NCBI GenBank assembly: GCA_945860405.1
Contig: CAMARC010000002.1
Coordinates: forward strand, 1 to 43,369
Source of the DNA: Candidatus Kuenenia stuttgartensis
Lineage (GTDB): Bacteria > Planctomycetota > Planctomycetia > Pirellulales > UBA1268
DNA: 43,369 nt
Reading direction: 5' to 3'
Under the pieces are notes generated by a model. It was not told where the DNA came from. It saw only the letters and a program-made list of their open reading frames with translations, and did no database searches. Of the stretch, positions 14,516 through 38,476 are shown piece after piece (position 1 is the stretch's first letter; each line of letters opens with the position of its first letter). Made by a program: the position numbers and the translations under genes.

Positions 14516-14730
14516 GCTTGGCCTCGCGGTGGATCGACCGTGGTGTTTGCGGGACCATCAGCCTTACGACCGACAATCCCGGCTCACCAGGAATATTCGT
14601 CCCAATCCCTCCCGCTTCTTTGATCGGACTTTTCAGGATTCCCGAAGAACAGTTCCTTCCCCCCAATTTGCCTCAACGGATAAGATGGAAAAACAGAAGG
14701 ATCCGCCCACGACGCGGAAAGCGACACATC

Positions 14731-17700: not shown

Positions 17701-19110
17701 CTGAATCCGGCCAAGACCGAACTTCTGCGGATCATCGACATGCCCGAAGCAGCTGGCACGACGAGCGTCTATTGGGCCCGCCGCAGGCTCGCCCAGGACT
17801 ACACGAGGAATGCCTCATACCGTGCACTCCAGGAAACTCTCGGTATTCTCCGGAAGAACATCGATGCCGAAGGAAAATTGACCCCGGAGGACATGCGGAT
17901 CGAGTTTGCGATTCTCATGGATCGTGAGGAGCCCGAGTGCTGGAGACAGGCCATCGCGCTCCTCGATGAATTGAAGCGCCGGGGCGAAGTCGAAGCCGAA
18001 CAGCGTGTCCTCCTTGCATGGCTCCAAGACAGACTCGGCAATTGGCTTGAGTCCCGCGAAACGCTCTTCAACATCGCAGCCGAACCGAACTGCCCGCCTG
18101 CCGTGATCGCCACGCTCGTCGAGCAACTCATCGCCCACGGGGAACTCTCTTCCGCCCGCACCTGGGCAGCCAGACTTCGGCAAAATGCGCCAGACGCGCC
18201 GATGACCGTCCGGCTCGACGCCAAACTCGCCATTGCTGCCGACGATCGTGAGGCCGCCGCCGAGGCGGCACGGAAACTCATTCCCCAAGGCCCGACCACC
18301 CCGGAGACCGCCGGATCGATCGGCGCCGTGGCCCAGTTGGTGGAAGAACTCGGCTTCCCGAAGGCGGCCGACAAGCTCTACACGGAATACGCCGAGTTGT
18401 CTGCCGACGGGATCCTGGCTCGGGCAGCTTTCCTCGGGCGCCAACAGCGCACCGAAGAGGCGATCGAGTTCCTCGAGACCGCGTGGGATCGACTGTCTGT
18501 TCTCGATATTCTCGGCACGGGGGTCGGAATCCTCGAAGCCAACGGTGAATCCCCATCCGCGATGGCCGACGAGCGTCTCTTGGAAATGTGCGCGAAGGCC
18601 CGTCGGGCCGATCCGGAATCATTCATGATCGTGATTCTCCAGGGCGCGGTGATGGAGTTGATCGGCAGGTCGGACGAAGCGGTTGCGATCTACCGTGAAC
18701 TCCTCGCGAAACCCGACCTCGATCCGGTTGTCGCCTCGCGGACCAAGAACAACCTGGCGGCGATTCTCATCGGCAGGAAGGAGATCGACGAGGCCCGGCA
18801 GTTGATCGATTCGGCGGTCTCCGAACTCGGCCCGCACCCGACGCTTCTCGATACCCGGGCTCTTGTTTGGCTCGCGCGGGGCGACACCTCGCGTGCGATC
18901 GAGGATCTGAAGGAATCGTTATTGGCCGCTTCGGCCACGACCCATCTCCACATGGCGCTGGCCGCCTACGATGCGCGGATGACCACGGAGTCCCGAGCCG
19001 CCCTGATCAACGCCGAAAAGAAGGGGCTTCGAACCGGACGGCTCACCAAGGTCGACCGGGAACGCCTCGCCACCCTCGACAAAGCGCTCGCCGAGCAGGT
19101 TGACAAGTAG
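14731..19110 (+). CDS. Giant TPR-repeat protein with an N-terminal membrane anchor, 1459 aa
   Basis: ORF 14476..19110. The preferred start is the ATG at 14731 (MQSVNLKLLILLAVLTVGGMGGVYAV, a TM helix). The rest is helical, Ala/Leu/Arg/Glu-rich, with many TPR-like repeats (e.g. AVGLYVRYMGLRSEDKEARAEFARLML, AIYRELLAKPDLDPVVASRTKNNLAAIL). No catalytic motif seen. Confidence 0.75.
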   Translation: MQSVNLKLLILLAVLTVGGMGGVYAVHEFQVYRNADNILALARERAEEGRSEEAVGLYVRYMGLRSEDKEARAEFARLMLRKVGATRASKASYAQAYDALEAAVRMNPDDDDLREQLAGFLYRTGNYTESRQHFGLIRDHRLTNPVASEAKEEAVSEGEKKRKPPTPDHIINLRYATSCAGMGRYDEAAEVASKLIGFDLGTKSFDTSWEPLPDCADAYLLIAEILERRYNDTSTASRVMRRLPEVYPNDSKAWLSMASWSFFRNDLAAAGIEIGRAARLAPDSPQVLFAEFEIAMRTKDYARATKVMQEGLAPYADDARVILGRADLARASGEPETSLDILVKGVETLPENPTIRGRIIDLLFDLGRGEDSIPHVDAMRELEGEDDPVVTWADARLLMERQQWLPALEKLKSLRPNVAGSQQLTHAVDLALAICHQALGQADELLEASRRVLADEPNSYQARVALATAHAQAGRDDEALAEFESLAATQALEDLPRMQLLWAPLLDLRVKEQLRRPEPERNWKKVDDLVELLSTSPHIGDAQIASIRSNVLQRRGDESGAVEIASQAFEASSDDPLVAAQFVTLLLASQDIERARQTVDRLKPEVRRDPRVLSAEARVSASEGGEAGEAGLALVEKVCEEIPNKDAVLVLLTVMGIRIQQRSIPEAERIAAVILKREPSEVRAHASLLQIAIDEKDVEKLSAYAEQIGDLTGRSSAPSRVAQAMVMILKVQISREKQLGEDKMPPPFSVEDRQLIEQARNFLLEAQNDRPGWFQIQQCFAEIAGISGDNAACISHLRKAIELGATNPSVQRMLAGMLRQAGRLDEAEEVIGSMGDAAGLGAARIRADIDAQAGRFDEAVARAEEITPADESNVDHLLWYARLLQACEKQPSALEVFVRAAELAPDRLECWIDLIRQQLLLGASQQADASLQRATAVLTGPDKEIVAAVFHEMRSDAGKAEVAYRNATLAAPTDHRVARRFAEFLLRRGLLNPAKTELLRIIDMPEAAGTTSVYWARRRLAQDYTRNASYRALQETLGILRKNIDAEGKLTPEDMRIEFAILMDREEPECWRQAIALLDELKRRGEVEAEQRVLLAWLQDRLGNWLESRETLFNIAAEPNCPPAVIATLVEQLIAHGELSSARTWAARLRQNAPDAPMTVRLDAKLAIAADDREAAAEAARKLIPQGPTTPETAGSIGAVAQLVEELGFPKAADKLYTEYAELSADGILARAAFLGRQQRTEEAIEFLETAWDRLSVLDILGTGVGILEANGESPSAMADERLLEMCAKARRADPESFMIVILQGAVMELIGRSDEAVAIYRELLAKPDLDPVVASRTKNNLAAILIGRKEIDEARQLIDSAVSELGPHPTLLDTRALVWLARGDTSRAIEDLKESLLAASATTHLHMALAAYDARMTTESRAALINAEKKGLRTGRLTKVDRERLATLDKALAEQVDK

Positions 19111-19168: not shown

Positions 19169-19483
19169 CTATCGCCCCTGCATGGCCCGGGAGCGAGCCA
19201 GCGCGTCCTCGGCCTCGGCGATCTTCCCGGCTCGCATGCAGGCAACGCTCAGTGCCGTGTAGCTGAACGGGTCGTTTGGCTCGAGCTCACAGGCACGACG
19301 TGCGTGCCTGACGGCGTCTTCGTGACGCTCGAGGCGGGTGCACCAAGCGGCGAGTGCTGAATGGGCCAACGCGAAATCTGGGTGGTCAGCCACCACCGCT
19401 TCGAGTTCTGCCACGGCTTCCGCCAGCCGTCCGGAGTCCTTCGTGGCGTGGGCGGCATCATAGCGTTCGTCGCGAGTCGTCAT
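19169..19483 (-). CDS. Small TPR-like protein, 104 aa
   Basis: ATG start. GRLAEAVAELEAVVADHPDFALAHSALAAWCTRLERHEDAVRHARRACELEPNDPFSYTALSVACMRAGKIAEAEDAL reads as about 2-3 TPR units. Convergent with the giant TPR gene. Confidence 0.6.
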   Translation of the reverse strand: MTTRDERYDAAHATKDSGRLAEAVAELEAVVADHPDFALAHSALAAWCTRLERHEDAVRHARRACELEPNDPFSYTALSVACMRAGKIAEAEDALARSRAMQGR

Positions 19484-20822: not shown

Positions 20823-20848
20823 TCCGACCCCGTGGGGTCGGATTTCTC
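20823..20848 (+). terminator. Rho-independent-type terminator hairpin after lpxA
   Basis: tccgaccc-cgtg-gggtcgga (8-bp stem, 4-nt loop) followed by tttctc, 14 nt after the lpxA stop. Confidence 0.55.
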
Positions 20849-21033
20849 GGCTGCGGCGCGGAAGGGGCAGATGGAGTGGCTTTTTCTGCGGGGTCCGAGG
20901 GGCCCTTTCCGCGGTAAATCGGCGATTCCCGGGAAATCCATTTCCGCTGGGTCGCGTGGCCTGAAAAGATGGGCAAAGATTGACGGAGGCGGAGAGTCTC
21001 CGTTGCCCGTCACCGCACGCGCCCACGGCCACC

Positions 21034-22377
21034 ATGTCCCGACGGCAATCAGATCCAACGAACGCCCGGCTCGGCGCGTCGCCCTTCCCGTCGCCCAGGC
21101 AATCCAACTGGCCGTGGATCCTCGGCGCCGTCGCATTGACTGCCCTCGGCGGATGGTGGATCGGCCAATGGCTCGGCGAACGCGCGCCGATCGTTGTGGG
21201 GATCCTCCACTCGCGATCCGGGCCGACGGCCGCTCAGGAACGCCCCCTCATCGACGCCGAGGTGATGGCCCTCGAGGACATCAACAGGGCCGGGGGGCTG
21301 CTGGGGCGAAAGATCCGTTGGGTGATCGCCGACGGCGGGACTGACGGCAACTCCTTCGCCCGGCAGGCGGAACGGCTCATTCGGGACGACCGGGTCGACG
21401 TCATCGTCGGATGTTGGTCGACGGCGAGCCGGCGGTCCGTGGTGCCTGTCGTCGAGGCGAACGACCACCTCCTCCTCCACCCGAACCGCCACGAGGGCTT
21501 CGAGGAATCGCCGAACGTCGTCTCGATCGGCCCGTTGCCGAACCAGCAGATCGCTCCGGCTGTGGCCTGGTGCCAGGAGGCAATGTCGGCCCGCCGCTTC
21601 TTCCTCATCGGGACCGACGATCCATGGTCGAGAGCGGCGGGAGCGTTTCTCGGAGACCAACTCGCCGGCATCGGTGCCGCGCTCGTCGGGGAGGAGTATC
21701 TGCCGGCCGGGAGCCTCGACGTGGTGTCGACGATCCAGGCGATCGGCGTCTCGAACCCCGACGTCGTGTTCAGCCTCCTCGGCGGCGATTCGACCGCCGC
21801 GTTGCTCCGCCAACTCCGTGAGGCTGGGGTCCGCCCCGCCGATCTTCCCGTGATGATGTTCACCGTCAGCGAGGATGAGCTTCAAGCCATGCCTCGCGAT
21901 GACGTCGCGCTGAACTACGTCGTCGCGGGCTCTTTTCAAGGCAAGGATCGGGCCACCGATCAGGCATTCACCAGCACGTTCACAACGAGCACCGAAAAAG
22001 AACGTCCCAGGTCGGAGCAAGCCATGGCCGCTTATGGGGCCGTTCGCCTCTGGGCGGAGGCGGTCAAGGAAGCCGGCTCCGCCGACGCATCGACCGTGCG
22101 TTCGACGATCAGCCATCAAACGCTGCCGAGCCCGGAGGGCGTGATCGCCGTCGATCCGGACAGCCGCCATGCTTGGCGCAATCTCGCTGTGGGCCGAATC
22201 CGTTCGGACGGCCAAGTTGACACGCTCTGGTCGACACGGGGACCGACACGCCCGACGCCGTTCCCGGCGACGCGGACCCGCCCCGAATGGACCAAGTTTC
22301 TGGTGACGGTCCAACGGCAGAAGGCCCAGCGACGTGCGGTCCCGGCGTCCGAGCCCCGATCGGGGGCGACACCATGA
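21034..22377 (+). CDS. Membrane-anchored type-1 periplasmic solute-binding protein, AmiC/UrtA (amide/urea-binding) family, ~447 aa
   Basis: ORF 20980..22377 opens with a TTG. I prefer the ATG at 21034 (MSRRQSD...). TM/signal anchor [22 protein letters not shown]. The motifs [90 protein letters not shown] and [11 protein letters not shown] are collinear with P. aeruginosa AmiC/UrtA as I recall them. The stop overlaps the MCP start (ATGA at 22374-22377). Confidence 0.8.
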
Positions 22378-24371
22378 GTTCCCCGCGCACCCCGCTGGCC
22401 GTGAACACCGCGAGGCGGTCGATCGTCGGTAGGCTCCTCTTCTGGTTCCTCATCATCGCCCTTGTGCCCTGCGCGATCCTCACGGCGACGACCGCCCGAC
22501 TGGCCACCCGGACGATGGAGGATTCCGTCCATGCCAGTCTCTCCCGGATCGCGGCCACGAAGGCGGCCGAACTCGAGAACGACGCGGCCGAAAGGATCCG
22601 TGATGTCACCGCCCTCTGCCGGGCGCCGGACCTCGTCCGAGCCATCCGTCAGACCGGCGGCGGATCGGACGATGCCACCAGCGGAAGCGGGTACCTCGAT
22701 GCCCTTGCCTCCTCGATGGCCTTCTCCCATGCCATCCTTGTCGACGCCGACGGACGCATCGTCCACTCCGGGGACGATCTCCTTCCGGAGGGCGCCTCGT
22801 TGCTCACCGGAGGGTTGGCAACGTCGGAACTCGCCTCCGGCTTCGCCCGGGCCCGCTCGCTCCTCCAAGCCGATCTCACCGGCTTCCAGACGTACGGATC
22901 GTCCCAGCGCCCGCTGGCCTTCGCAGTCGGCCCGATCCTCGACGGAGGCCGGGTGGTGGGGGTCCTGGCGTTGGGCTTCGGAACCGAGCGGATCTTCTCA
23001 ACGCTCGACGCTTTCACCGGACTCGGCAAGACCGGGGAGATCGTCGTCGGACTCCGCTCCGGCGACGACATCCTCGTCACTGCCCCCATCAGACACGTGC
23101 CAGACGCCGCGTTCCGGATGCGGATCCCCGCCACCGTCAATCGCGGGACGGCCCTCCCGGCCGCCGCTGCGGGAGAACGTGGTGAGGGAATCATCACCGA
23201 TTACCGCGGAAACCGGGTCGTCGCAGCGTGGTGCCATCTTCCCAGCTACCGTTGGGGGATGACGGTAAAGCAGGATGCCAGAGAGGCCTTCTCGCTCGTC
23301 GATTTCCAACGGGCCCTGGTCGTCGGACTGTCCCTCGCAACCATCGCCGGAGTGTCTCTGGCGGCATTCGTCGTCGCGCGAACGATCTCCAATCCGATCC
23401 GCACAGCGGTCCACATCGCCAGGCAAGTGGCAGCTGGCGATCTGCGGGGGAATGTCGTCGGCCACTCCGACGATGAGACCGGCGCCCTCCTGACGGCGAT
23501 CCAGACGATGACAAACGATCTGCGCGGCCTCATCGGCCGGATCCAGAAGTCCTCGGTGGCCTTGATCTCGACGGCCACGGCGATGCAGGCAACGAGTGCC
23601 GAGCAGCAGCAGGTAATCGCCGACTACGGCGCCTCGACGAGCCAGGCCGTAGCGGCGGTGAAGCAGATCACCGTCACCAGCCAGGAACTGGTTCGGACGA
23701 TGACGGAGGTCAATGACATGGCCGCCCACACCGGGGACATGGCAGCCGGTGGCCGGGACAATCTCGCCAGCATGGACGGCACCATGCGTCACCTCGCCGA
23801 CAGCACGACCTCCTTCAGCGCGAAGCTCGCCGTCATCAGCGAACGGGCAGCTCACATCAACCTCGCCGTGACCACGATCGCGAAGGTGGCCGACCAGACG
23901 AATCTGCTGTCGATCAACGCTGCCATCGAAGCAGAGAAGGCCGGGGAATACGGCCTCGGCTTCCTCGTCGTGGCCCGGGAGATCCGTCGGCTCGCCGACC
24001 AGACCGCCGTGGCATCGCTCGACATCGAGCGGATGGTCAAGGAGATGCAAAATGCCGTGTCGGCGGGCGTCATGGAGATGGACAAGTTCAGCGAACAGGT
24101 GCGGGGCGGCGTCAGCGAGATCGGCGAGATCTCGGCCCGACTCGGCGACATCATCTCCGCCGTACAGGGAATCTCCGGACGCTTCGGTCAGGTCACCGAG
24201 GGGATGAGGGCGCAATCGCAGGGAGCCGAACAGATCCGCGAGGCGATGGTCCGGCTGGCCGAAGGGGCAGCGCGGACGGCGGAATCGCTCAATGATTTCA
24301 ACGGCGCCACGATCCACCTCCGCGAGGCGGTTGGCGACCTCAAGGAGGAGGTGTCCAGGTTCACGATCTGA
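22374..24371 (+). CDS. Methyl-accepting chemotaxis protein with a Cache-like periplasmic sensor and HAMP domain, 665 aa (WspA position)
   Basis: Start at MSSPRTP (ATG at 22374). Two TM helices ([18 protein letters not shown] and [21 protein letters not shown]) flank ~300 aa with Cache-type signatures ([49 protein letters not shown]). A HAMP domain follows. Conserved signalling hairpin [44 protein letters not shown]. Confidence 0.92.
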
Positions 24372-24413
24372 TCGCCATCCGTCACCCTTGCGCGATCTCC
24401 GGGCCCCGCCGCC

Positions 24414-24905
24414 ATGCAACTCCTCACCTTCACCGCCGGCGGACAGACCTACGCCATCGAGGCCACGTGCGTCGTGGAGGTGCTGCCGGCCGTGCCGGCC
24501 CGCGTGGTCCCCAGGCTGCCCGACTACGTCCTCGGGGTGGTCGGTTACCGGGGAAGGCTGATCCCGGTCATCGACCTGGCCAAGCGGCTCACCGACGAGT
24601 TCTCGGCCCGCCGGTTGAGCACGAGGCTGCTGGTGGTCGAGTTTCCCTGGAGGGAAGGGTCGGAGTCCTCGCGACCGTCGCCGAAGGCCCGGTTGGGGAT
24701 CGTGGCCGAGAACATGGTCTCGACGCTCAGGTCGGACGACGTCGATATGGTTTTTCCGACGATGCACCTGGAAAGTTCCCCGTATTTAGGGAGAATCCTT
24801 CGACTGAACGGGCAGACGGTACACATGCTGATCGTCGAGAATCTCCTCCCGGCAGAACTCGCCTCGGGCTTGTTCGCGGCTGCCCCGGAGCCGCCATTGC
24901 CATGA
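24414..24905 (+). CDS. cheW: CheW-like coupling protein, 163 aa (WspB position)
   Basis: MQLLTFTAGGQTYAIEATCVVEVLPAVPARVVPRLPDYVLGVVGYRGRLIPVIDLAKRL is a typical CheW domain. The stop overlaps the cheR start (ATGA at 24902-24905). Confidence 0.88.
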   Translation: MQLLTFTAGGQTYAIEATCVVEVLPAVPARVVPRLPDYVLGVVGYRGRLIPVIDLAKRLTDEFSARRLSTRLLVVEFPWREGSESSRPSPKARLGIVAENMVSTLRSDDVDMVFPTMHLESSPYLGRILRLNGQTVHMLIVENLLPAELASGLFAAAPEPPLP

Positions 24906-26278
24906 ATCAGTCCCCTGCCTTGCCTTCGACAGCGGCCGAGGAGGTGCTCCGACGTTGGATCGGCCTCGACCCCCACAGCATCGGCGAAGCGGCCATCCGC
25001 CGTGCTGTCCGCCTGAGGATGCTCTCGCTGGGTCTCGACGACATCCAGACCTTTGTCCGTCTCGTGGAGACCGACCGGACGGAGCGTGATCGCCTCGTCG
25101 AGGAGGTCGTGGTCGCGGAGAGTTGGTTTTTCCGCGACCAGCAGGTCTATGACCATCTCCGGCGATTCGTCTCGGCAAGAATCGCGGCCCGCCCCGGCGA
25201 TCCGGTGAGGATTCTCAGCGCCCCCTGCGCGGCGGGTGAGGAGCCCTACTCGATCGCGATGGCGCTGCTCGATTCCGGCTTGCGTTCCGAGCAATTCCGC
25301 ATCGATGCCATCGACATCAGTCGTGTCGCCCTTTCCAAAGCGCAGACCGCACGCTATTCCCCGAACGCGTTTCGTAACGCCGACAGTGGTTTCCGCGACC
25401 GCTGGTTCAGGATGGACGGTGGCAGCGCCGTGCTCGACGAGGCGGTGTCTCGCTGCATCCGCTTCGCCTGGGCAAACATCCTCGAGGAGTCTTTTGTGTC
25501 CGGAGCGCTCGACTCCGGCCGGGCTCCGTACGACGTCGTGTTCTGTCGGAACCTCCTCATCTATCTCACGCCCGATGCCAGGGCTGCCGTGGAGCGGTCG
25601 ATCGATCGACTGCTGAAGCCGGATGGCATCGTGGTCCTCGGGGCGGCGGAGCCCGCGATCCTCCAGGGCAACTGGGTGGCAGACTCCGCCGGATCGACGT
25701 TCACCCTCCGACGGGGAGGCTCCGGGGAAACCGCCCGCTGGCCCTCCCTGGCCGCTGGCCCGAGCACCACGCCACGGCGCCCCGCGCCCCTCACAGCGTC
25801 CCGCGCCCACCACCCGAAGGCCACTGCTCGATTGACGCCGCGTCAGCTCACGCCGATCACGCCGCCGCCCCTCTCGTCATTCGATGGACAGGCACACGCA
25901 GCACCACAAGCCCCCGTTCCCCCTCCCGATGGGGCCGCAACCGAACCGAGGCCCCAAAACGTTTCCCAGACGTTGGCCGATGTCAATGCCCTCGCCAACG
26001 CCCGACGCTTCAAGGAAGCAATCGCCTTGTGTGAATCGGCCCAGAAGGATCTGGGCCCCTCGGCGGAGCTGTACTTCATCGCCGGAATCATGCACCAGAC
26101 CTCCGGCAGCCTGACCGTAGCCGAGGACTGCTTCCACAAGACGCTCTACCTCGACGGCACCCACGATGAAGCCCTTCTCGCCCTTTCCCTGCTCGCTGAG
26201 CAGCGTGGCGACCGCGGCCAAGCCGAGCAGTACCGTCGCTCGGCGTTGCGGGTCGTGGAACGGAAGGGAGATCAATGA
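24902..26278 (+). CDS. cheR: Chemotaxis protein methyltransferase CheR with a C-terminal TPR domain, 458 aa (WspC position)
   Basis: Start at MNQSPALP (ATG at 24902). ESWFFRDQQVYDHL, ILSAPCAAGEEPYSIAMAL and YDVVFCRNLLIYL are the CheR SAM-methyltransferase motifs. A Pro-rich linker leads to TPR-like repeats (ALANARRFKEAIALCESAQ..., EDCFHKTLYLDGTHDEALLALSLLAEQRGDRGQAEQY). The stop overlaps the next start (ATGA at 26275-26278). Confidence 0.9.
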   Translation: MNQSPALPSTAAEEVLRRWIGLDPHSIGEAAIRRAVRLRMLSLGLDDIQTFVRLVETDRTERDRLVEEVVVAESWFFRDQQVYDHLRRFVSARIAARPGDPVRILSAPCAAGEEPYSIAMALLDSGLRSEQFRIDAIDISRVALSKAQTARYSPNAFRNADSGFRDRWFRMDGGSAVLDEAVSRCIRFAWANILEESFVSGALDSGRAPYDVVFCRNLLIYLTPDARAAVERSIDRLLKPDGIVVLGAAEPAILQGNWVADSAGSTFTLRRGGSGETARWPSLAAGPSTTPRRPAPLTASRAHHPKATARLTPRQLTPITPPPLSSFDGQAHAAPQAPVPPPDGAATEPRPQNVSQTLADVNALANARRFKEAIALCESAQKDLGPSAELYFIAGIMHQTSGSLTVAEDCFHKTLYLDGTHDEALLALSLLAEQRGDRGQAEQYRRSALRVVERKGDQ

Positions 26279-27096
26279 ACGACCCTTCCTCCGTCCATGC
26301 GGCGCATCATCCAGTTCCTCCCCCGACAGCCCAGGGCGGTCCGGCCCCATGTGCGCCCGAGCAGATCGACGCCCATCTCCCTCCAGTCGCCGCGCCGGCC
26401 GACCGGGAGGAGTGCTGGCGACGAATCGGCGTCACCGGTGATCGGAGTTGCCGGGAACTGGAGACCTACATCCACTGTCGCAACTGCCCCGTCATGGCCG
26501 ATGCGGCACGCGCTTTCTTCGATCGCCTGGCGCCGATCGGCTATCTCGAATCGTGGTCGGGGATCATCGAGGAACGCGGCACCCGCCGCGATCAAGAGGT
26601 TGTCAGCGTCCTCGTCTTCCGGCTCGCTGACGAGTGGCTTGCCCTGCCGACAACGGCGCTGGTCGAGGTCACCAAAGTACGCCGGTGCCATCGCGTGCCG
26701 CACCGGACCGGCGGCGTCCTCGAAGGCCTCGTGAACATCCGCGGACAGTTGCAACTGTGCGTCTCCGCGCAGCGCCTGCTGGGGATCGAAGAGGCCGCCG
26801 CGGAACCGAGGGCCGCGACGGGCGACCTCATCCGAGTCGTTGATCCGGAGCTGCGCCGCTTGCTCGTCGTCGAGCGGCAGGGCCGCCACGGCCCCGACCG
26901 CTGGGTTTTCCCTGTTGAGCAGGTCGCCGGTGTTTTCCGCGTCGACCAGGCCACGCTCCGCGCGGTTCCCGCCACGGTCAGTCAGTCGGGGGCCCGGTTC
27001 TGCCAGGCGCTGTTCGATTGGCAGGGCGTGATCGTGGGAATCCTCGACGAGACCCGGTTTCTCGACGGCCTCAAAGACCAGGTCCGTTCGACCTGA
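26275..27096 (+). CDS. CheW-like protein with an N-terminal four-Cys module, 273 aa (WspD position)
   Basis: N-terminal CWRRIGVTGDRSCRELETYIHCRNCPV, followed by a CheW domain (VLVFRLADEWLALPTTALVEVTKVRRCHRVPHRTGGVLEGLVNIRGQLQLCV). Confidence 0.85.
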   Translation: MNDPSSVHAAHHPVPPPTAQGGPAPCAPEQIDAHLPPVAAPADREECWRRIGVTGDRSCRELETYIHCRNCPVMADAARAFFDRLAPIGYLESWSGIIEERGTRRDQEVVSVLVFRLADEWLALPTTALVEVTKVRRCHRVPHRTGGVLEGLVNIRGQLQLCVSAQRLLGIEEAAAEPRAATGDLIRVVDPELRRLLVVERQGRHGPDRWVFPVEQVAGVFRVDQATLRAVPATVSQSGARFCQALFDWQGVIVGILDETRFLDGLKDQVRST

Positions 27097-27125
27097 CCCA
27101 TCCCCGACTCGCCGGACCTGAACAG

Positions 27126-27132
27126 AAAGGAG
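27126..27132 (+). promoter_or_regulatory. Shine-Dalgarno sequence for cheA
   Basis: AAAGGAG ends 6 nt before the GTG start at 27139. The nearby ATG at 27134 is out of frame with the CheA ORF. Confidence 0.6.
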
Positions 27133-27138
27133 CATGCC

Positions 27139-29487
27139 GTGGCGGAAGATCTGAGCGGCTTTTCCATGCTCGAACTGTTTCGGCTCGAGGCCGACACACA
27201 GACCGCCGTGCTGTCGGCGGGGATTCTGGCCATCGAACGCCTCGACCTGTCTGCCCAGACCATCGAGGCGATGATGCGCGCCGCACACTCGCTGAAGGGG
27301 GCCGCCCGCATCGTCGGAGTCGAGCCCGCCGTCGAGGTGTCCCATGCCCTCGAGGACTGTTTCGTCGCTGCCGGCCGGGGCGAGATCCAAGTCCGCCCTG
27401 AGCATGCCGACGTTCTCCTGGCGTGCGTTGACTTCCTTGCGTCGATCGGCCGGGCTGACGATGCGCTGCTGCCGGATGGCCCCTGGTTCGGAAGGGCGAT
27501 GGCCCTCGTCGCGGCCTTGGGAAGGATGCATTCGCTCCCCGAGGAACTCTTCCCGGTACCCTCGGCACAGGTCGCGCCCCCGGCTCCCCTTCCGGAGATT
27601 CCGGGCCGTTTCCCCACGCCGGCTCTTCTGCCCCGATCCCCCGAGCCAGCCCGCGATGAGGAGCCGCCGGTCGCGATCGCGCCCTCCGACGAACCGCCGG
27701 TGGCGACGGCTCCCGAGCCTGCGCTCGAATCGACTGACCGTGTCGTGCGGGTTTCGGCGGACAGCTTGACCAGATTGGTGGGCCTTGCCGGCGAGGCTCT
27801 CGTGGAGACCCGGCAACTCCGTCCGTTCATCGACGGACTCCTCGGATTGCGGGCCTCCCAGATCGAACTCTGTGACTCCCTGGCGGCCCTCGAGGATCGG
27901 ACGGCAGCCGATGGCGTTGCCCTGCCGGCGTCCGTGGCGATGGCCGTCGAGCGGGCGCGATCGCGGGCCGACGCGATGTTGGCGACGCTCATGAAGCACG
28001 TCGATGACTTCGAGAGCTTTGCTCGACGCAATGAGGACCTCTCGGGCCGGCTCCACCACGAGGTGATCGTCAGCCGGATGCGGCCGCTGGCCGATGGAAT
28101 TCGCGCGTTTCCGAGGCTCGTTCGTGATCTCGCCCGGTCGCTCGACCGACAGGTGCGGTTCGAGGTGCGTGGCGAGCAGACCGGCGTGGACCGCGACATC
28201 CTCGACAAGCTCGAAGCTCCCCTCTCGCACCTCATTCGCAACGCCATCGATCATGGCATCGAGCCCCCTGACGAACGGATCGCCGCCGGCAAGCCCCCGT
28301 CGGGCAAAATCGTCCTCGAAGCCCGTCACCGCGCCGGGATGCTGCAGATCCTCATCACCGACGATGGCCGGGGCATCGATGTCGAGCGACTGCGAGCCCG
28401 CGCCGTGGAACGCGATCTCGTCCCCCGACACGTCGCCGAACGCCTCACCGAATCGGAGGTGATGGAGTTCATGTTCCTGCCCGGCTTCTCCACTCGGGAA
28501 CGGGTCACGGAAATCTCCGGACGCGGGGTCGGGCTCGACGTCGTTCAGAGCATGGTGAAGGCGGTCGGTGGCGGTGTCCGGGTCTCCAGCCAAGCCGGCC
28601 GCCAGACGGTTTTCACGCTCCAACTGCCGATCACGATGTCGGTTGTCCGCGCCCTGCTCGTCGAGGTCGCCGGCGAGCCCTACGCATTTCCTTTGACGCG
28701 GATCGACAACATCCAATTCGTCGATCATGCCGACGTGCGCACCGTCGAGGGGCGGCAATTCTTCCGCCGGGACGACGAATCGATCGGATTGGTGATGGCC
28801 GAGCAGATTCTGGGCACCGGAACGGGAGACAGCCCGCCCGCCCCGATGCCGGTCGTCGTCGTCAGCGACCGGGGGCAAAAGTTCGGCATGATCGTCGACG
28901 CCTTTCTGGGAGAGCGGGATCTCGAAGTCCGTCCCCTCGATCGCCGGCTCGGGAAGATCGCCGACATCAGCAGCGCCTCGCTCCTGGAAAACGGCGATCC
29001 GGTGCTGATCGTCGACGTCGAGGATCTCGTGCTCTCGATCGACAACATGCTGATGGGGCGGAGGTTGTCGCGGGTCGACTTCGAGCATCTCGTCCGTCGG
29101 GCCCGTCGGACGAAGCGGGTTTTGGTCGTTGACGATTCCGTCACCGTCCGAGAACTGGAGCGTCAACTACTCCATTCGCGGGGTTTCGATGTCGACGTTG
29201 CCGTGGATGGCATGGACGGCTGGAATGCAATCCGTGGTGGCGACTACGATCTGGTGGTCAGCGACGTCGACATGCCCAGGCTCGACGGGATCGGCTTGGT
29301 GTCCCTCATCAAGGGGGACCCTCTCCGCAAGGACCTTCCTGTCGTGATCGTCTCCTACAAGGATCGGGAGAGCGATCGGATCCGCGGACTCGATGCCGGG
29401 GCGAACCGCTACCTGACCAAGACCAGTTTTCACGACCAGACTTTCATATCCACGATCATCGACCTGATCGGTGAGCCGAACGCGTGA
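27139..29487 (+). CDS. cheA: Hybrid chemotaxis histidine kinase CheA with a C-terminal receiver domain, 782 aa (WspE position)
   Basis: HPt domain (MMRAAHSLKGAARIVGV). ATP-binding boxes (HLIRNAIDHGIE, ITDDGRGID, GFSTRERVTEISGRGVGLDVV). CheW-like P5 domain (ALLVEVAGEPYAFPLTRI). Receiver domain (VLVVDDSVTVRELE...DLVVSDVDMPRLDG...VSYK). Confidence 0.93.
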   Translation: MAEDLSGFSMLELFRLEADTQTAVLSAGILAIERLDLSAQTIEAMMRAAHSLKGAARIVGVEPAVEVSHALEDCFVAAGRGEIQVRPEHADVLLACVDFLASIGRADDALLPDGPWFGRAMALVAALGRMHSLPEELFPVPSAQVAPPAPLPEIPGRFPTPALLPRSPEPARDEEPPVAIAPSDEPPVATAPEPALESTDRVVRVSADSLTRLVGLAGEALVETRQLRPFIDGLLGLRASQIELCDSLAALEDRTAADGVALPASVAMAVERARSRADAMLATLMKHVDDFESFARRNEDLSGRLHHEVIVSRMRPLADGIRAFPRLVRDLARSLDRQVRFEVRGEQTGVDRDILDKLEAPLSHLIRNAIDHGIEPPDERIAAGKPPSGKIVLEARHRAGMLQILITDDGRGIDVERLRARAVERDLVPRHVAERLTESEVMEFMFLPGFSTRERVTEISGRGVGLDVVQSMVKAVGGGVRVSSQAGRQTVFTLQLPITMSVVRALLVEVAGEPYAFPLTRIDNIQFVDHADVRTVEGRQFFRRDDESIGLVMAEQILGTGTGDSPPAPMPVVVVSDRGQKFGMIVDAFLGERDLEVRPLDRRLGKIADISSASLLENGDPVLIVDVEDLVLSIDNMLMGRRLSRVDFEHLVRRARRTKRVLVVDDSVTVRELERQLLHSRGFDVDVAVDGMDGWNAIRGGDYDLVVSDVDMPRLDGIGLVSLIKGDPLRKDLPVVIVSYKDRESDRIRGLDAGANRYLTKTSFHDQTFISTIIDLIGEPNA

Positions 29488-29505
29488 ACCGCGGGCGGCC
29501 ACCTT

Positions 29506-29516
29506 GGGGGGGGGGG
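29506..29516 (+). repeat. G11 homopolymer in the cheA-cheB spacer
   Basis: accttGGGGGGGGGGGcagtGTG. Eleven consecutive G end 4 nt before the cheB GTG start at 29521. This is the longest homopolymer I noticed in the window. Confidence 0.9.
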
Positions 29517-29520
29517 CAGT

Positions 29521-30525
29521 GTGCGAATCGGAATCGTCAATGACGTACGGGCCGCGAGCGAGGCTCTGCGTCGGATTGTCACCGGCCTGACAGACCATGA
29601 GATCGCCTGGACGGCCAGTGACGGTGTCGAGGCGGTGGCGGCGGCCAAGCGCGACCGCCCTGACCTGATCCTCATGGATCTGCTCATGCCGCACATGGAT
29701 GGCGTCCAGGCCACCCGGCAGATCATGCTCTCGTCCCCGTGCGCGATCCTCGTGGTCACCGCGACGGTGAGCGGCAATATTTCCTTGGTCTACGAGGCCA
29801 TGGGCCACGGTGCGCTCGATGCCGTCGACACGCCTGTGCTCGGTCCGTCGGGCGAGGTTCAGGGGGCCCAGGCGCTCGTCGACAAGATCGCCATGATTGG
29901 AAAATTGGTCGGCGCGTCCCCCGATGCCCGTCGTACCAGCCGGGTGGCTGCTCCGTCCGGCCCGCCCAAACTGCTCCTCATCGGCGCCTCAACCGGGGGA
30001 CCGAAGGCGATCTCCGAGATTCTCCAGCCACTCCCCGTCGACTGGAATGTTGCCGTGCTGATCGTGCAGCACGTCGACATGGCCTTCGCACCGGGGCTGG
30101 CAAAATGGCTCGGGGACCGAACCGGACGATCGGTGCGGGTGGTCGAGGACGGCCAAATGCCCCTGGCCGGGGACGTGCTCGTCGCCGGCACCAACGACCA
30201 TCTCATCTTCAACAAGGATCGGACCCTCGCCTATCGCGAGGAACCGAAACACCTCTTCTTCAGACCGAGCGTCGATGTCTTCTTCTGGAGCGTGGCCGAA
30301 TGCTGGCCCCAGGCCGGCACTGCGATCCTCCTCACGGGCATGGGAACCGACGGTGCCAAGGGACTGCTCGCCCTCCGGGCCCGCGGCTGGCACACGATCG
30401 CCCAGGATCAGTCGAGCAGCGTGGTCTGGAGCATGCCGAAGGCCGCGATCGAACTCAACGCAGCCTGCGAAGTGCTGCCGGTCGCCAAGATGTCCCAGGC
30501 GATCAGCCAACGATTGGCGAAGTGA
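29521..30525 (+). CDS. cheB: Protein-glutamate methylesterase CheB (REC + methylesterase), 334 aa (WspF position)
   Basis: GTG start. Receiver domain (IGIVNDV...DLILMDLLMPHMDG). Methylesterase catalytic motifs GASTGGP, VQHVD and GMGTDGA. Confidence 0.92.
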   Translation: MRIGIVNDVRAASEALRRIVTGLTDHEIAWTASDGVEAVAAAKRDRPDLILMDLLMPHMDGVQATRQIMLSSPCAILVVTATVSGNISLVYEAMGHGALDAVDTPVLGPSGEVQGAQALVDKIAMIGKLVGASPDARRTSRVAAPSGPPKLLLIGASTGGPKAISEILQPLPVDWNVAVLIVQHVDMAFAPGLAKWLGDRTGRSVRVVEDGQMPLAGDVLVAGTNDHLIFNKDRTLAYREEPKHLFFRPSVDVFFWSVAECWPQAGTAILLTGMGTDGAKGLLALRARGWHTIAQDQSSSVVWSMPKAAIELNAACEVLPVAKMSQAISQRLAK

Positions 30526-32002
30526 CGCCGCCGTGGCCGGCGATCTCGCGCATCACTCCGAGCACGATCGCCTCGGCGGTGCCGGGGCGGCGATCGAGCG
30601 CGATGACCTGCACCCCGACCGGTAATCCGGCACTGCCGCGATCGGTCTCGATGGCCGCGGCCTCGACAGGGTCGTTCGACCGGGGCCGACCCGACTCCTC
30701 GTCGCCCCGCACCGCGGTGACCGGCACCGCCCCCGCCGCAAGGTCGAGAAGATTCGCGAGGAGACAGGGGGACGCTGCCAAAAGGAGGCGCGACGCCGAG
30801 CCATGACGGAGGGCAGGGAGCGCGGAGACGGGGCAGACAATGCAATCGTGGGCCGTCGCCCAACGCGCTACGGTGGCCTCGATCGGGCCCCGGCTCCAGA
30901 GGAGAGCTTCGCGCGCGGCCGCGTTCCGGGGGCCGGTTCGACGCAGCGCTCGAGCCTCGAGGGCACGCCCCCCCCAGACGCACGCCCCGGCAACGATGCC
31001 CCGTGCCCACCCCGGGATCCCCGCCAGGGTGAGGAGTCGACGGACCGGATCGATCGGTCGCTCCCCGGCGAACAGCCGGCGGATGTCGGCGCCGCCGTCC
31101 GCCGAAAGGATGCCGAGATGCACCCAGGCGGCCTCGGCGGCCACCTCGGGATCGAGTCGGGTCACGGTGGCCCCGGAGGCAGCGAGACGTTCGACCGCCA
31201 AGGCGACGGCCCGGCGGACCGCCGGGGAGGGAGCCAGGGGGCCGGCCTCGTCCCACCACCCCACACGGAGACGATTGACAGGAGGGGCTCCAACGACAGG
31301 CGTTCCACACAGCCCAAGGAATCCTGCTTCGGCATCGTCGACCGTCCGCGCGAGGAAACCGGCCCGTGATCGCTGCCCGACGAGCCGTGGCATCGTCTCG
31401 AAGGCCCCGCCGCCGCCGAGCGTTTCCGCGCGCGGCAACAGGCCGACGATCCCGCAGGCGTGTGCCGGTTGGCGGATGCTGCCGGCCAGGTCAGTCCCGA
31501 TGGCCAGCGGAACACACCCGGCGGCGACCAGCGCCGCATCCCCGCCACTGCTTCCTCCCGGGCCCCGTTCAGCATCGGTCGGGTGAACGGTCCTTCCCCA
31601 CACGGGATTGTCGGTCTCGTGGAGGTAGAGCGCTTGGGGTACGTTCCCCTTGCCGATGACGATCGCTCCGGCGGCCTGCAATCGAGTCACGATTCCCGCG
31701 TCATCCCGGTCGAGCGCCGACGCCCGGCCACGAATCCCGAGGGTTGTGACCAGCCCCCTGACGGCGAAGCACTCCTTGACGCTCACCGGCACACCGGCGA
31801 GTGGACCGGGGGCCGAGTTGGCGAGCCGGGAAGCATCCGCGATCGCCTCGGCGCCACGGGACTGCACGAGAGCATTGAGACCGGCGTGGGCGCGGCGGCA
31901 ACAATCGACCGACTCCGTGACCACGTCCACCGGATCGACGGCTCCACGGGCTACCTCGGCGACGATTCCTGCCACGGTCTCCCGATGATTCGGCTCGCCC
32001 AT
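30503..32002 (-). CDS. Amidase-signature family hydrolase, 499 aa
   Basis: C-terminal part of ORF 30503..32485. Start at MGEPNHRETVAGIVAEVARGAVDPVDVV (ATG ending at 32002). Catalytic Lys context PVSVKECF, GGSSGGDAALVAAG, GTDLAGSIRQPA. The 3' end overlaps the cheB 3' end by 23 bp (30503-30525), convergent. Confidence 0.85.
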   Translation of the reverse strand: MGEPNHRETVAGIVAEVARGAVDPVDVVTESVDCCRRAHAGLNALVQSRGAEAIADASRLANSAPGPLAGVPVSVKECFAVRGLVTTLGIRGRASALDRDDAGIVTRLQAAGAIVIGKGNVPQALYLHETDNPVWGRTVHPTDAERGPGGSSGGDAALVAAGCVPLAIGTDLAGSIRQPAHACGIVGLLPRAETLGGGGAFETMPRLVGQRSRAGFLARTVDDAEAGFLGLCGTPVVGAPPVNRLRVGWWDEAGPLAPSPAVRRAVALAVERLAASGATVTRLDPEVAAEAAWVHLGILSADGGADIRRLFAGERPIDPVRRLLTLAGIPGWARGIVAGACVWGGRALEARALRRTGPRNAAAREALLWSRGPIEATVARWATAHDCIVCPVSALPALRHGSASRLLLAASPCLLANLLDLAAGAVPVTAVRGDEESGRPRSNDPVEAAAIETDRGSAGLPVGVQVIALDRRPGTAEAIVLGVMREIAGHGGVTSPIVG

Positions 32003-32037
32003 CCGATCAAGCTCCGCAGGGATGAACGCGCCGTCGA

Positions 32038-33873
32038 TCACAACGAGTTGGGATCGACCGCATCGTCCGCCGCTTTTCCAACCGCCGGCAGCGTCCCGAT
32101 ATCGACGGCCCAGATCGTGTCGGATTCCCCGAGAACACCGACCACGATGACCGCATCGCCGGGCTGGGCCATGGGGGCACTGCGGCTTAGGAACGACAGC
32201 CCATGGGGGGCCTCTCCTCCGACGGCGAGCCGCCCACCCCACCAGGGACCAACGGGGCGGACCGCTTCGAGCGTAGCGATGAGGATCGCCCCATCCGACG
32301 GGCGTTTTTCGCTGGCGAGCCACATGCTGCCGAGAAGCTCCAGATCGTTGTGACGATCGAGGGCCAACCTCGCGCGCAACTCGGCAAACCGATCGATGAC
32401 CTCGGAAGACGATTGGCCCGACTCGATCGCCGCCCGTTCCACCTTGGCCAATTCGAGCGCCACGAGGCTCAAACTCCGGTACCACAAGACGAGCGCCTGC
32501 TCGCGGGCAGCCGGATCCCCGCCGAAGGCTCCTTCGCCGAGCGTATCGGTGGCGCTGGTCGCCGCGTTGATCGCCGCCGTGACCGTGGCAAGATCGATCC
32601 CGGCCGACTCGTGCCCGGCTTCGATGCCCGCGCTCCCGGCGTCAACCAGCACCGGATCGACGACGATCTCCAGTTCCTCGATCGGCTGAGGCTGAGGCTG
32701 AGGCGAGGCGGGAAGCCCACTGCCGGCGAGTTCGGCCGCATCGGCGGGAGCGGGGGCCGGCGCGATCGCCCCCTCCACGAGCGCCCCCTCAACAGGGGCC
32801 GGGGTGGCAGCAGCGGGGGCGATGCTCGGTGCCGGCACCGGCTCTGCCGTGGTCGTGCCTTTGGCCGGCGGGGAAGAAATCTGATCGAGCGTCAACCTTC
32901 CGGGGCCACCGGTCGTCTTGTCGGTGCGTCTCTCCTCGCCGGCCGAGCGGAAACGGGACGGGAGGAGGAATCGAAGGCCGTTAGGCACCTTCGGGGTGAT
33001 CTGGAGGGGATCACGCTGAAACCCGAACAGGAGAATCGCCAGCGTGACGGGGATCGCCAGCACGCCCCCGATCACCACGCCGACCATCTGCCCCAATCCC
33101 CCGCCTGCTCGCTTCGAGCGCGGTCCCGACGTCACAATCGCACCGGAGGCGACAGCGGGGGGCAGGGCTGCCGAGAGCGCCCCGACGTCGATCGTTTCGC
33201 CTTGGGATTCGTCGATCCCCTGCGAGTCTCCGTGGTAGGAGTCCGCGACTGCGGGATCGACAACCTCCGCTTCACCAACGAACGCGCCGAATCCGATCGA
33301 CTCCGACGGCAGGTCATCACGCACTGTCGCGACGATGTCACGCCACTCATCCGCGGCCTTCTCGCCGCCGGAGTGGAGTTCCTCCTCGGGCAACGGATCT
33401 GTCCCGGCCGGCCAGACGGGCTCATCCTCTGGAACCTCTGTGGCAAGCGTGCGGACCGCACGCTCCTCCGGTGGGCTGACCGACGAACCGACATCGCTCG
33501 GCGACGCGATACCCGATTGGCCGGTGCCGATCTGCACCCGAGAGGCGTGAGAAACGCCCGACGCCTCGGGATCGTCTTCGGAGGTGGTCACGGCAAGAGG
33601 GTCGGGGCCGACATCGATGGCAACATCGAGGTCGGCCGGTCCCTCGAGCCAGCCTTCCGGCATTCCATCGACACGGGAACGCTCCTCTTCGGAGGTCTCT
33701 CCGATGCCGACCCGCGCGTCATCGATCCCGAGTTCGAAGCGATCGGCATCCGTGGGCTCGATGCTTTCCCAAGCCTCCGCAGATGCCCGGTCAGTCAGGG
33801 AGTCATCCCCGGCCGACGGGGCCGGAGTGATGTCATCCCCTTCGGGCACCGGTCGGTCGTTCTCGAAAGTCAT
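32038..33873 (-). CDS. Hypothetical single-pass membrane protein with a highly acidic N-terminal half, ~611 aa
   Basis: ORF 32038..33939 opens with a GTG. I prefer the ATG ending at 33873 (MTFENDRP), preceded by GGAGGGGG. About 270 aa are rich in Asp/Glu. One TM helix (MVGVVIGGVLAIPVTLAILLFGF). Pro/Ala linker with PQPQPQP. A C-terminal ~190-aa globular-looking region. No family recognised. The gene ends 35 nt upstream of the amidase start, same strand. Confidence 0.55.
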   Translation of the reverse strand: MTFENDRPVPEGDDITPAPSAGDDSLTDRASAEAWESIEPTDADRFELGIDDARVGIGETSEEERSRVDGMPEGWLEGPADLDVAIDVGPDPLAVTTSEDDPEASGVSHASRVQIGTGQSGIASPSDVGSSVSPPEERAVRTLATEVPEDEPVWPAGTDPLPEEELHSGGEKAADEWRDIVATVRDDLPSESIGFGAFVGEAEVVDPAVADSYHGDSQGIDESQGETIDVGALSAALPPAVASGAIVTSGPRSKRAGGGLGQMVGVVIGGVLAIPVTLAILLFGFQRDPLQITPKVPNGLRFLLPSRFRSAGEERRTDKTTGGPGRLTLDQISSPPAKGTTTAEPVPAPSIAPAAATPAPVEGALVEGAIAPAPAPADAAELAGSGLPASPQPQPQPIEELEIVVDPVLVDAGSAGIEAGHESAGIDLATVTAAINAATSATDTLGEGAFGGDPAAREQALVLWYRSLSLVALELAKVERAAIESGQSSSEVIDRFAELRARLALDRHNDLELLGSMWLASEKRPSDGAILIATLEAVRPVGPWWGGRLAVGGEAPHGLSFLSRSAPMAQPGDAVIVVGVLGESDTIWAVDIGTLPAVGKAADDAVDPNSL

Positions 33874-34069
33874 CGCCCCCTCCAGCCGCTTGTGATCGGC
33901 GATCCACACGGGGGGACGGGGCGTCCCGGGTGGGGCCACACGCCACCAAGACCACCGGATCGATCGCCTTCATCCCACCCACTTTCGTTTCGATTGTACC
34001 ACCGGGTCCAAGGCTCAACTGTCCCGGTCTGGAGGCATTCCATGCCGCTGATCAAGGGGCCGGTCGAGG

Positions 34070-37843: not shown

Positions 37844-38476
37844 TCAGACGAGGCCCCGGCGCACGGCCCACACGGCCGCCTGCGTCCGATCGGTGACGGC
37901 GATCTTGCGGAGGATGTTTTGGACATGCTCCTTCACCGTCTCGACGCTGATCGTCAGCGATTGGGCGATCTCCTTGTTGGAGAGCCCCAGGGCCATGTGG
38001 CGGAGAACCTGCGTTTCACGCTGCGTGAGGGGGATATCGGGATCGGGCGTGGCTACCCGGTTGGCCATCGTCGTGGCCACGCGGCGCAACTCGCCAGCAC
38101 GGGCCGGGAGTTGACCAGCTGCGGCCCCGGTTATCGCGGCGATGATTTCGCTCCGCGAGGCCCCCTTGAGGATGTAGTCGTGGGCCCCAGCGGCCACCGC
38201 GCGGGCCACGTAAGTCGGATTGTCGAACGTCGAGAGCATCACCACCCGGACGGTGGGCAGATCGGCCCGGATCTTCTCGAGGGCCGCCAAGCCATCCTTT
38301 CCCGGCATACGGATGTCGAGGAGCACGACATCGGGCTTGAGCTTCTTGGCCAGTTTCACCGCCTCGTCGCCGTTGGAAGCCTCGCCCAGAATCTTGACCT
38401 CGGAGCCGGCAAGCAGGCTGGCGAGACCGCGGCGAACCACTTCATGGTCATCGGCGATGAGGACTTTGACTGACAT
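37844..38476 (-). CDS. NarL/FixJ-family response regulator (REC + LuxR-type HTH), ~210 aa
   Basis: Preferred start at MSVKVLIADDHEVVRRGL (ATG ending at 38476). DVVLLDIRMPGKDG. C-terminal LTQRETQVLRHMALGLSNKEIAQSLTISVETVKEHVQNILRKI. Confidence 0.9.
   Translation of the reverse strand: MSVKVLIADDHEVVRRGLASLLAGSEVKILGEASNGDEAVKLAKKLKPDVVLLDIRMPGKDGLAALEKIRADLPTVRVVMLSTFDNPTYVARAVAAGAHDYILKGASRSEIIAAITGAAAGQLPARAGELRRVATTMANRVATPDPDIPLTQRETQVLRHMALGLSNKEIAQSLTISVETVKEHVQNILRKIAVTDRTQAAVWAVRRGLV

Follow-up and report, generated by a model that had tools for sequence, protein, structure and literature searches.

A binding protein gene heads a chemosensory operon

The DNA stretch analyzed here (43,369 nt of contig CAMARC010000002.1 from the planctomycete Candidatus Kuenenia stuttgartensis, called the window below) carries seven open reading frames (ORFs) on the forward strand between positions 21034 and 30525. 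The first encodes a periplasmic binding protein (PBP) and the second a methyl-accepting chemotaxis protein (MCP), and these are followed by CheW, CheR, a second CheW, a hybrid CheA::REC kinase and CheB. An initial annotation, made from the sequence alone, had proposed these seven genes with their coordinates and domains, and both the ORF list and a Pfam scan agree with it (Table 1).

The genes are closely packed. Direct reading of the sequence confirmed three start/stop overlaps of the form ATGA, in one of which the ATG start of the MCP gene shares its letters with the stop codon of the PBP gene, and the remaining gaps measure 42, 42 and 33 nt, within the 33-42 nt given before. Third-position G+C is 0.79-0.85 in most ORFs of the operon, as expected of real genes in a genome with 67% G+C. 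A promoter and terminator scan, otherwise uninformative, found no terminator-like site inside the operon, and a hairpin (20824-20841) lies after the upstream lpxA-like gene.

The 33-nt spacer between cheA and cheB contains a run of 11 G (29506-29516) just 5' of the GTG start of cheB, at the position of the ribosome-binding site. This tract is length-variable, with 9 G in one relative (L004) and 6-7 G in three others (L001, L005 and L006).

Table 1. Features of the operon and of its convergent neighbor (positions in the window)
Feature	Coordinates	Strand	Evidence
PBP, sensor-type binding protein, 447 amino acids	21034..22377	+	Peripla_BP_5, E 1e-107
N-terminal hydrophobic helix of PBP, residues 26-47, likely uncleaved signal anchor	21109..21174	+	AlphaFold2
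MCP, 665 amino acids: first transmembrane segment (TM1), dCache, TM2, HAMP, signaling domain	22374..24371	+	MCPsignal, HAMP, weak dCache_1 (Pfam)
Periplasmic dCache ligand-binding domain of MCP, about residues 45-325, proposed PBP docking site	22506..23348	+	AlphaFold2, Foldseek
CheW (WspB-like)	24414..24905	+	Pfam CheW; 32% identity to L084
CheR methyltransferase with C-terminal TPR-like tail (WspC-like)	24902..26278	+	Pfam CheR
Second CheW with N-terminal extension (WspD-like)	26275..27096	+	Pfam CheW at residues 112-264
Hybrid CheA::REC kinase (WspE-like)	27139..29487	+	Hpt, HATPase_c, CheW, REC (Pfam)
CheB methylesterase (WspF-like)	29521..30525	+	REC, CheB_methylest (Pfam)
Amidase-signature enzyme, convergent neighbor of cheB, not shown to be part of the system	30503..32005	-	Pfam Amidase, E 1e-75

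A predicted UrtA/AmiC-type binding protein and a dCache receptor

By sequence and by model, the PBP is a type-1 binding protein of the UrtA/AmiC fold, the family to which it had been assigned in the initial annotation. Apart from the Pfam match, its best solved relatives by sequence are 8tg1 (E 2e-85), which is a urea-binding protein from Caldicellulosiruptor, the UrtA structures 7s6f, 8hic and 7s6e, and AmiC (1pea, E 1e-43). The AlphaFold2 model (mean pLDDT 82) retrieved 8tg1, 7s6f, 7s6e, 8hic and 1pea as top Foldseek matches, with a TM-score, normalised to the target, of 0.85 against UrtA structures. The score against the UrtA model TIGR03407 (316.2 bits, cutoff 492.75) is below the family cutoff. 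Homologues of the PBP are publicly annotated as 'urea ABC transporter substrate-binding protein'. Consistent with the earlier statement that ABC genes are missing near the PBP, all ORFs of at least 100 amino acids across the 43-kb window lack both a Walker A motif and an ABC signature, and a homology search found neither urtB-E nor urease homologues in the window. Nor did an ANTAR domain turn up among the window ORFs scanned.

The N-terminal membrane anchor that had been noticed is seen in the model as a helix of residues 26-47. The first strand spans residues 53-59, which leaves a tether of about five residues, and there is no lipobox. The helix is likely an uncleaved signal anchor.

The receptor had been described as a Cache-type MCP, and its predicted fold agrees. 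Pfam dCache_1 matches the window MCP at 33.7 bits, below the cutoff of 45; the domain is on record for nearly all homologues and scores above threshold in most of the scanned relatives that have a histidine kinase or a GGDEF-EAL output (see below). The model of the sensor domain (pLDDT 79.6) consists of two alpha/beta modules on a long helix, and Foldseek matches it best to the dCache domains of PctA, Mlp24, DctB and Tlp3, so by model the sensor domain is dCache. Domains of this type usually bind ligands directly, in the membrane-distal module (PMC8050422). A homologue search with the sensor domain alone gave only 10 fragments, and the full-length MCP was used instead.

Binding protein and receptor genes are paired across phyla

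Scanning 185,579 species genomes and looking up contigs gave 86 loci. The PBP is at least 40% identical to that of the window in 38 of these, of which 36 have downstream sequence, and a homologous dCache receptor is the next gene in all 36. The adjacency, whose conservation the initial annotation had left to be judged from relatives, is thus kept throughout this group, and it is found in other phyla and with other outputs as well. About 32 of the 36 receptors are MCPs and four are hybrid histidine kinases, the latter in loci labelled Methylacidiphilales, Chthoniobacterales, Victivallales and, in one case, 'Bacteroidetes'. The full CheW-CheR-CheW-CheA::REC-CheB set is present in at least 15 of the 36 loci, and about nine have the PBP-MCP pair alone.

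Another 45 loci have a PBP of 31-41% identity. Here a dCache-HAMP receptor comes next in 10 loci and urtB/C in 25, most of the latter with urease genes nearby; we refer to PBPs of the two kinds as sensor-linked and transporter-linked. The 10 distant sensor-linked loci belong to Betaproteobacteria, Zetaproteobacteria and unclassified metagenome-assembled genomes (MAGs), and their receptors combine dCache-HAMP with either a histidine kinase or PAS-GGDEF-EAL in one protein. Neither a motif scan nor a homology search with UrtB-E found urtBCDE after any sensor-linked PBP; the homology search is the preferred of the two, because the scan for ABC ATPase motifs missed some cyanobacterial and other loci.

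The N-terminal layout of the window PBP recurs in its sensor-linked relatives, most of which have a hydrophobic segment of 19-23 amino acids ending 3-12 residues before the core, usually with no lipobox. Transporter-linked relatives, in contrast, mostly have a lipobox or a signal peptide followed by a linker of 15-42 residues.

Divergence of the two partners runs in parallel. Identities of PBP core and MCP sensor domain are 87/85, 77/82, 53/51, 50/47, 41/34 and 38/30% (r = 0.95), and over the same range the cytoplasmic domain of the MCP is 100, 96, 85 and 70% identical. Within the clade of the window, the PBP core has a ratio of nonsynonymous to synonymous substitutions (dN/dS) of 0.12-0.16. 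The values for the MCP are 0.11-0.125 in its sensor domain and 0.004-0.033 in its cytoplasmic domain. Given the paired divergence and the conserved adjacency, we regard the PBP and the dCache domain as evolving together, as one unit joined to varied outputs.

The ligand pocket differs between lineages

Urea in Prochlorococcus UrtA (8HIC) is contacted by W120, S122, Y141, Q144, E146, Y190, F192, N246 and S274 (PMC10392092). These nine contacts and the adjacent Y145 were mapped onto the relatives (Table 2). Seven of the ten positions are replaced in the window PBP and three are kept. The amide- or urea-like signal that had been proposed for it therefore does not fit the pocket of this protein.

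Table 2. Residues at the ten mapped positions of the urea pocket (numbering of Prochlorococcus UrtA)
Group	W120	S122	Y141	Q144	Y145	E146	Y190	F192	N246	S274
Transporter-linked relatives	W	S	Y	Q	Y	E	Y	F	N	S
Kinase-/GGDEF-EAL-linked relatives (except two Roseateles loci)	W	S	Y	Q	Y	E	Y	F	N	S
Wider planctomycete MCP-linked clade	W	S	Y	A	Y	E	Y	W	V	A
AmiC (1PEA, acetamide-bound)	Y	S	Y	P	Y	E	Y	Y	V	T
Window clade	W	T	H	R	H	E	D	W	G	T

The window clade also has Ala-Gly where Trp-Asn is otherwise conserved. The replacement residues H149, R152, H153, D196, G250 and A298 show 72-100% identity across this clade, and R152, H153 and an acidic residue at 196 are kept in two PBPs that are 52-56% identical (P0016 and P0023). 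Judged from these residues, the pocket is rebuilt with His, Arg, His and Asp and with smaller residues, that is, larger and charged, not decayed. Conservation of the replacements, together with purifying selection on the PBP core, fits a changed specificity better than a dead pocket; and since the urea pocket is rebuilt, urea and simple aliphatic amides are unlikely ligands of the window PBP.

The wider planctomycete clade has Ala and Val at Q144 and N246, the hydrogen-bond acceptors for one urea nitrogen, and resembles the acetamide-binding AmiC at these positions, which by analogy suggests an amide rather than urea as the ligand. The kinase- and GGDEF-EAL-linked relatives with a full urea pocket are, from their residues, probably urea sensors, and because most relatives of these two kinds retain the complete pocket, ligand binding is regarded as the ancestral mode of the family.

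One Methylacidiphilales MAG (L033:45-15382) has ureC/F/G and urtEDCBA divergent from an adjoining second UrtA paralogue of the sensor type; the next genes after this paralogue encode a dCache-HAMP hybrid histidine kinase and an NtrC-type REC-sigma54-HTH regulator. The paralogue keeps 10 of 10 urea-contact residues, and from its genes this locus looks like a urea-sensing two-component system that would control urea uptake and urease.

In one planctomycete lineage (L002:13560-21362 and L003), a PBP-MCP pair with no che genes adjoins a full cluster for reductive pyrimidine catabolism, including PreT/PreA-like proteins, a CN hydrolase, dihydropyrimidinase, an aldehyde dehydrogenase and an aminotransferase. 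A link between pyrimidine catabolism and the ligand was considered and dropped, as tblastn showed this arrangement in L002 and L003 only.

The Che proteins form a Wsp-type core

The initial annotation had compared the order from MCP to CheB with wspABCDEF of Pseudomonas, and this holds for the six-gene core. Best matches to CheA in a tblastn search of plasmid records are about 48% identical over the full length. One of them lies on pMLb of Mesorhizobium japonicum (L084), in a cluster that encodes MCP, CheW, CheR, CheW, hybrid kinase, CheB and a PleD-family regulator. All six Che proteins of the window are collinear with this cluster (31-52% identity, tblastn) and also with an unannotated cluster on a Ralstonia megaplasmid. 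Against L084/L085 the identities are 46% for the cytoplasmic part of the MCP, 32% for CheW, 32-34% for CheR, 37% for the second CheW, 48% for CheA and 52% for CheB. The alignment with L084 covers residues 9-456 of CheR, tail included, and residues 21-270 of the second CheW, including part of its N-terminal extension. CheB passes NCBIfam NF009206 (418 bits, cutoff 342), and relatives at least 90% identical to the six proteins are labelled WspA, WspB, WspC, WspD, WspE and WspF in IMG/KEGG.

Two details of the comparison had to be narrowed. The TPR tail claimed for CheR gives weak NCBIfam TPR matches (residues 366-450, E 5e-5) and no match to any Pfam TPR model at E 0.01. In the MCP, similarity to Wsp-type MCPs is restricted to residues 332-665 (46% identical); as the alignment starts at residue 332, only the cytoplasmic part is Wsp-like, and a periplasmic sensor domain of the WspA type is not present in this protein, whose sensor is dCache by fold.

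CheR-TPR fusions occur predominantly in clusters for alternative cellular functions (ACF; PMC3447774), and WspE-WspRF systems have been noted earlier in freshwater Planctomycetes (PMC6461901). The latter study cites Pseudomonas Wsp as tied to cell-surface interactions.

An Isosphaeraceae MAG (L031:19401-20603) encodes a REC-SpoIIE (PP2C phosphatase) response regulator directly after cheB. The REC domain of this protein and that of the WspR-like regulator encoded on M. japonicum pMLb are 61% identical, a match that makes the phosphatase a possible alternative output of Wsp-type pathways in planctomycetes. With this regulator after cheB, outputs vary within the phylum.

A probable two-protein receptor and its alternatives

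Taken together, these results make it probable that the seven genes are one transcription unit for a Wsp-type, ACF-class chemosensory pathway with a two-protein receptor, composed of the tethered PBP and the dCache MCP. The N-terminal helix, probably uncleaved, would hold the PBP on the outer face of the cytoplasmic membrane, where it could capture a small periplasmic molecule and close around it. Closure would then alter the contact of the PBP with the dCache domain of the MCP, possibly near the membrane-proximal module, as the five-residue tether suggests. The MCP would in turn modulate CheA::REC via the two CheW proteins, and CheR, with its TPR-like tail, and CheB would adapt the receptor by methylation. 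Physical contact between PBP and MCP, the direction of signaling and the output are the parts of this scheme that we infer. A response-regulator gene that could serve as output is not linked to the operon in the lineage of the window.

Several points weigh against this reading. A WspR-like query gave no REC-GGDEF match in the operon, the window or the che loci of planctomycetes; with neither WspR nor another output linked, the term Wsp-type covers the core only. Co-inheritance alone yields part of the correlation between PBP and sensor divergence. The tree in which the sensor-linked PBPs form one clade is a quick neighbor-joining tree that has no support values and misplaces two loci (L007 and L027) whose PBP ORFs were mis-extracted; the tblastn matches of these two are normal despite their placement. 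The remodelled pocket could mean that the PBP no longer binds a ligand. Finally, the window encodes FliW, from which the host is probably flagellated.

This last point bears on the alternative that the pathway is a chemotaxis system steering flagellar swimming toward or away from the PBP ligand, which we consider unlikely. The designation 'non-flagellar' in the initial annotation was drawn from family resemblance, and besides FliW, the missing link to a GGDEF regulator would suit a flagellar role. So would the many relatives with a PBP-MCP pair and no che genes within 10 kb, in which the MCPs must feed a Che core encoded elsewhere. However, Pfam finds no gene for CheY, CheZ, CheC, CheD or CheV in the operon, the closest matches of the six core proteins lie in Wsp-type clusters with a PleD/WspR-like regulator as last gene, and both CheR-TPR and CheA::REC are typical of alternative-function systems (PMC3447774). 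The Isosphaeraceae regulator after cheB, with a REC domain close to that of a WspR-like protein, argues in the same direction.

Alternatively, the PBP may be a ligand-independent accessory subunit that stabilizes, localizes or inhibits the MCP, the signal being sensed by the dCache domain itself or consisting, as in Pseudomonas Wsp, of a physical or envelope cue. Replacement of seven of the ten mapped positions in the window clade speaks for this, as does the usual direct binding of ligands in the membrane-distal module of dCache domains (PMC8050422); Pseudomonas Wsp, too, is linked to cell-surface interactions (cited so in PMC6461901) and not to a known chemical ligand. We find this improbable in view of the conservation of the replacement residues, three of which persist in P0016 and P0023 (the third as an acidic residue at 196), the low dN/dS of the PBP core and the complete urea pocket in most kinase- and GGDEF-EAL-linked relatives.

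That the PBP is the orphan component of an ABC importer whose other genes lie elsewhere, and that its place ahead of the MCP gene has no bearing on signaling, accords with the public annotation, with the transporter proteins among its nearest structures and with the mostly transporter-associated binding proteins that stimulate bacterial chemoreceptors (PMC8050422), but it is very unlikely considering the absence of ABC genes from the window and after every sensor-linked PBP, the adjacency that persists across phyla while the receptor output changes, the score below the UrtA cutoff and a short tether unlike that of transporter-linked relatives. A dual role of the PBP, in transport as well as in sensing, is conceivable.

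The two-protein receptor may also be part of a wider pattern. We tentatively propose, without leaning toward it strongly, that a tethered UrtA-like PBP and its cognate dCache domain could constitute a mobile two-gene cassette with three outputs in at least three phyla. Planctomycetota would use it with Wsp-pathway MCPs, Verrucomicrobiota and Proteobacteria with hybrid histidine kinases, and Betaproteobacteria with PAS-GGDEF-EAL enzymes, and the pockets would be retuned in Planctomycetota.

Genomic surroundings

Judged by the names of homologues, the window belongs to freshwater Planctomycetota, in the Pirellulales/Planctomycetaceae. Upstream of the operon lie 2-oxoacid dehydrogenase genes, an HTTM-domain protein (11524-13059, +), a 1544-amino-acid TPR protein (14476-19110, +), a 104-amino-acid TPR protein (19169-19483, -) and an LpxA-like acyltransferase. 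The HTTM and TPR genes stay syntenic with the operon in L001, L086 and the P0023 contig, the last of which has no HTTM gene.

Downstream, the 3' end of the amidase gene overlaps that of cheB by 23 nt. From its likely start Met the amidase has about 500 amino acids and no signal sequence, and is cytoplasmic. It adjoins cheB likewise in at least 10 related loci (L001, L004-L007, L009, L012, L014, L017 and L027). A functional partnership with the operon was dropped, the enzyme being convergent, cytoplasmic and absent where the PBP-MCP pair stands alone. Past the amidase are genes for an M32 carboxypeptidase, a PIG-L deacetylase, a XerC/D-type recombinase, a NarL-type response regulator (REC and GerE; 37844-38506, -), 7 kb downstream of cheB, HemC, an LptF/G permease and FliW (41774-42412, +). 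The region 32038-34260 contains overlapping ORFs on opposite strands, of 633 (-) and 685 (+) amino acids and with no Pfam match; in relatives, the amidase is followed by an unannotated gene on the (-) strand of 548-601 amino acids.

The wider planctomycete clade has a divergent gene for a sigma-54 activator (AAA+ and HTH, lacking REC and any other sensory domain) between lpxA and the PBP gene, as in L086:8358-9575 and in L007, L009, L010, L012, L014, L017, L018, L022 and L027; the copies are 67-75% identical to one another. The window and its close relatives lack this gene, and a stretch of 225 nt separates lpxA from the PBP gene there. Sigma-54 control of the operon was rejected, as the activator gene is missing from the window clade and no -24/-12 match was seen by eye upstream of the PBP gene.

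Comparison with known systems

Two features of binding-protein-dependent dCache receptors are found here, namely adjacent, co-oriented genes without a transporter and a dCache-like receptor domain. In Halobacterium salinarum, the binding-protein genes of BasB/BasT and CosB/CosT lie directly upstream of that of a dCache-like transducer, with no transporter genes, and BasB is a type-1 PBP of the Peripla_BP_6 family (PMC8050422). These pairs are archaeal, serve flagellar taxis, use other PBP families and respond to amino acids or osmoprotectants, whereas the window system is bacterial, has a Peripla_BP_5 protein with an apparent transmembrane anchor and heads a Wsp-type operon. In LuxP/LuxQ, NspS/MbaA, ScrB/ScrC and HptA/HptS, a binding protein encoded beside a dCache-like receptor is the ligand-sensing subunit (PMC8050422). 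This is the arrangement of the kinase- and GGDEF-EAL-linked relatives described here, but the binding proteins of those systems are soluble members of Peripla_BP_4, SBP_bac_8 and SBP_bac_3, and none is UrtA-like or wired to Che proteins. Bacterial binding proteins linked to chemoreceptors are otherwise transporter-associated (PMC8050422).

With Pseudomonas Wsp (WspABCDEFR) the operon shares the order MCP-CheW-CheR-CheW-CheA::REC-CheB; it differs by the PBP as first cistron, the dCache sensor, the lack of WspR and the planctomycete host. UrtA (UrtABCDE; 8HIC, 7S6E/F, 8TG1) is closest to the PBP in sequence and fold. Unlike UrtA, which has a signal peptide or lipobox and a long linker, the window PBP has a short membrane tether, scores below the family cutoff, is encoded without urtBCDE or urease and has a changed pocket. 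AmiC (1PEA) shares fold and family and is likewise a binding protein for sensing, not transport, and the wider planctomycete clade has the same kind of pocket changes (Q144 to a small residue, N246 to Val). AmiC is, however, cytoplasmic and controls the antiterminator AmiR, whereas the window PBP is predicted to be exported, anchored and paired with an MCP. The pocket of the window PBP matches neither AmiC nor UrtA.

The initial annotation knew of no characterised Wsp-type system with a dedicated PBP cistron. This stands in so far as a literature search, with most subscription journals outside it, turned up neither a Wsp-type operon that has a PBP cistron nor an UrtA-like PBP paired with a Cache receptor; as a gene arrangement, the cistron is preceded by basB/basT and cosB/cosT (PMC8050422). 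As far as this search reaches, the UrtA-like PBP/dCache pairing is new; the class of binding-protein-dependent receptors, such as BasB/BasT and LuxP/LuxQ, was already known.

Implications

The inputs of Wsp-type pathways are poorly understood, and we know of no chemical ligand identified for Pseudomonas Wsp. An operon with a dedicated ligand-binding subunit offers a tractable case, in which a chemical input can be sought by simple binding screens, and the pairing of PBP and receptor across phyla hints at a route, so far not described, by which such pathways could receive a small-molecule signal. The predicted sensor family is currently filed as 'urea transport system substrate-binding protein', a label that inflates the urea-uptake capacity inferred for freshwater Planctomycetota from metagenomes. 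Kinase-linked members with an intact urea pocket provide a testable route to external urea sensing by bacteria, and the family as a whole is a natural series of pocket variants on a scaffold already used for urea biosensors. If the cassette proposal is true, members with the full pocket would be the first urea-sensing two-component and cyclic di-GMP systems, retuning would have made the planctomycete pocket AmiC-like in the wider clade and charged, with His, Arg and Asp, in that of the window, and the Wsp-type pathway would gain a defined small-molecule input.

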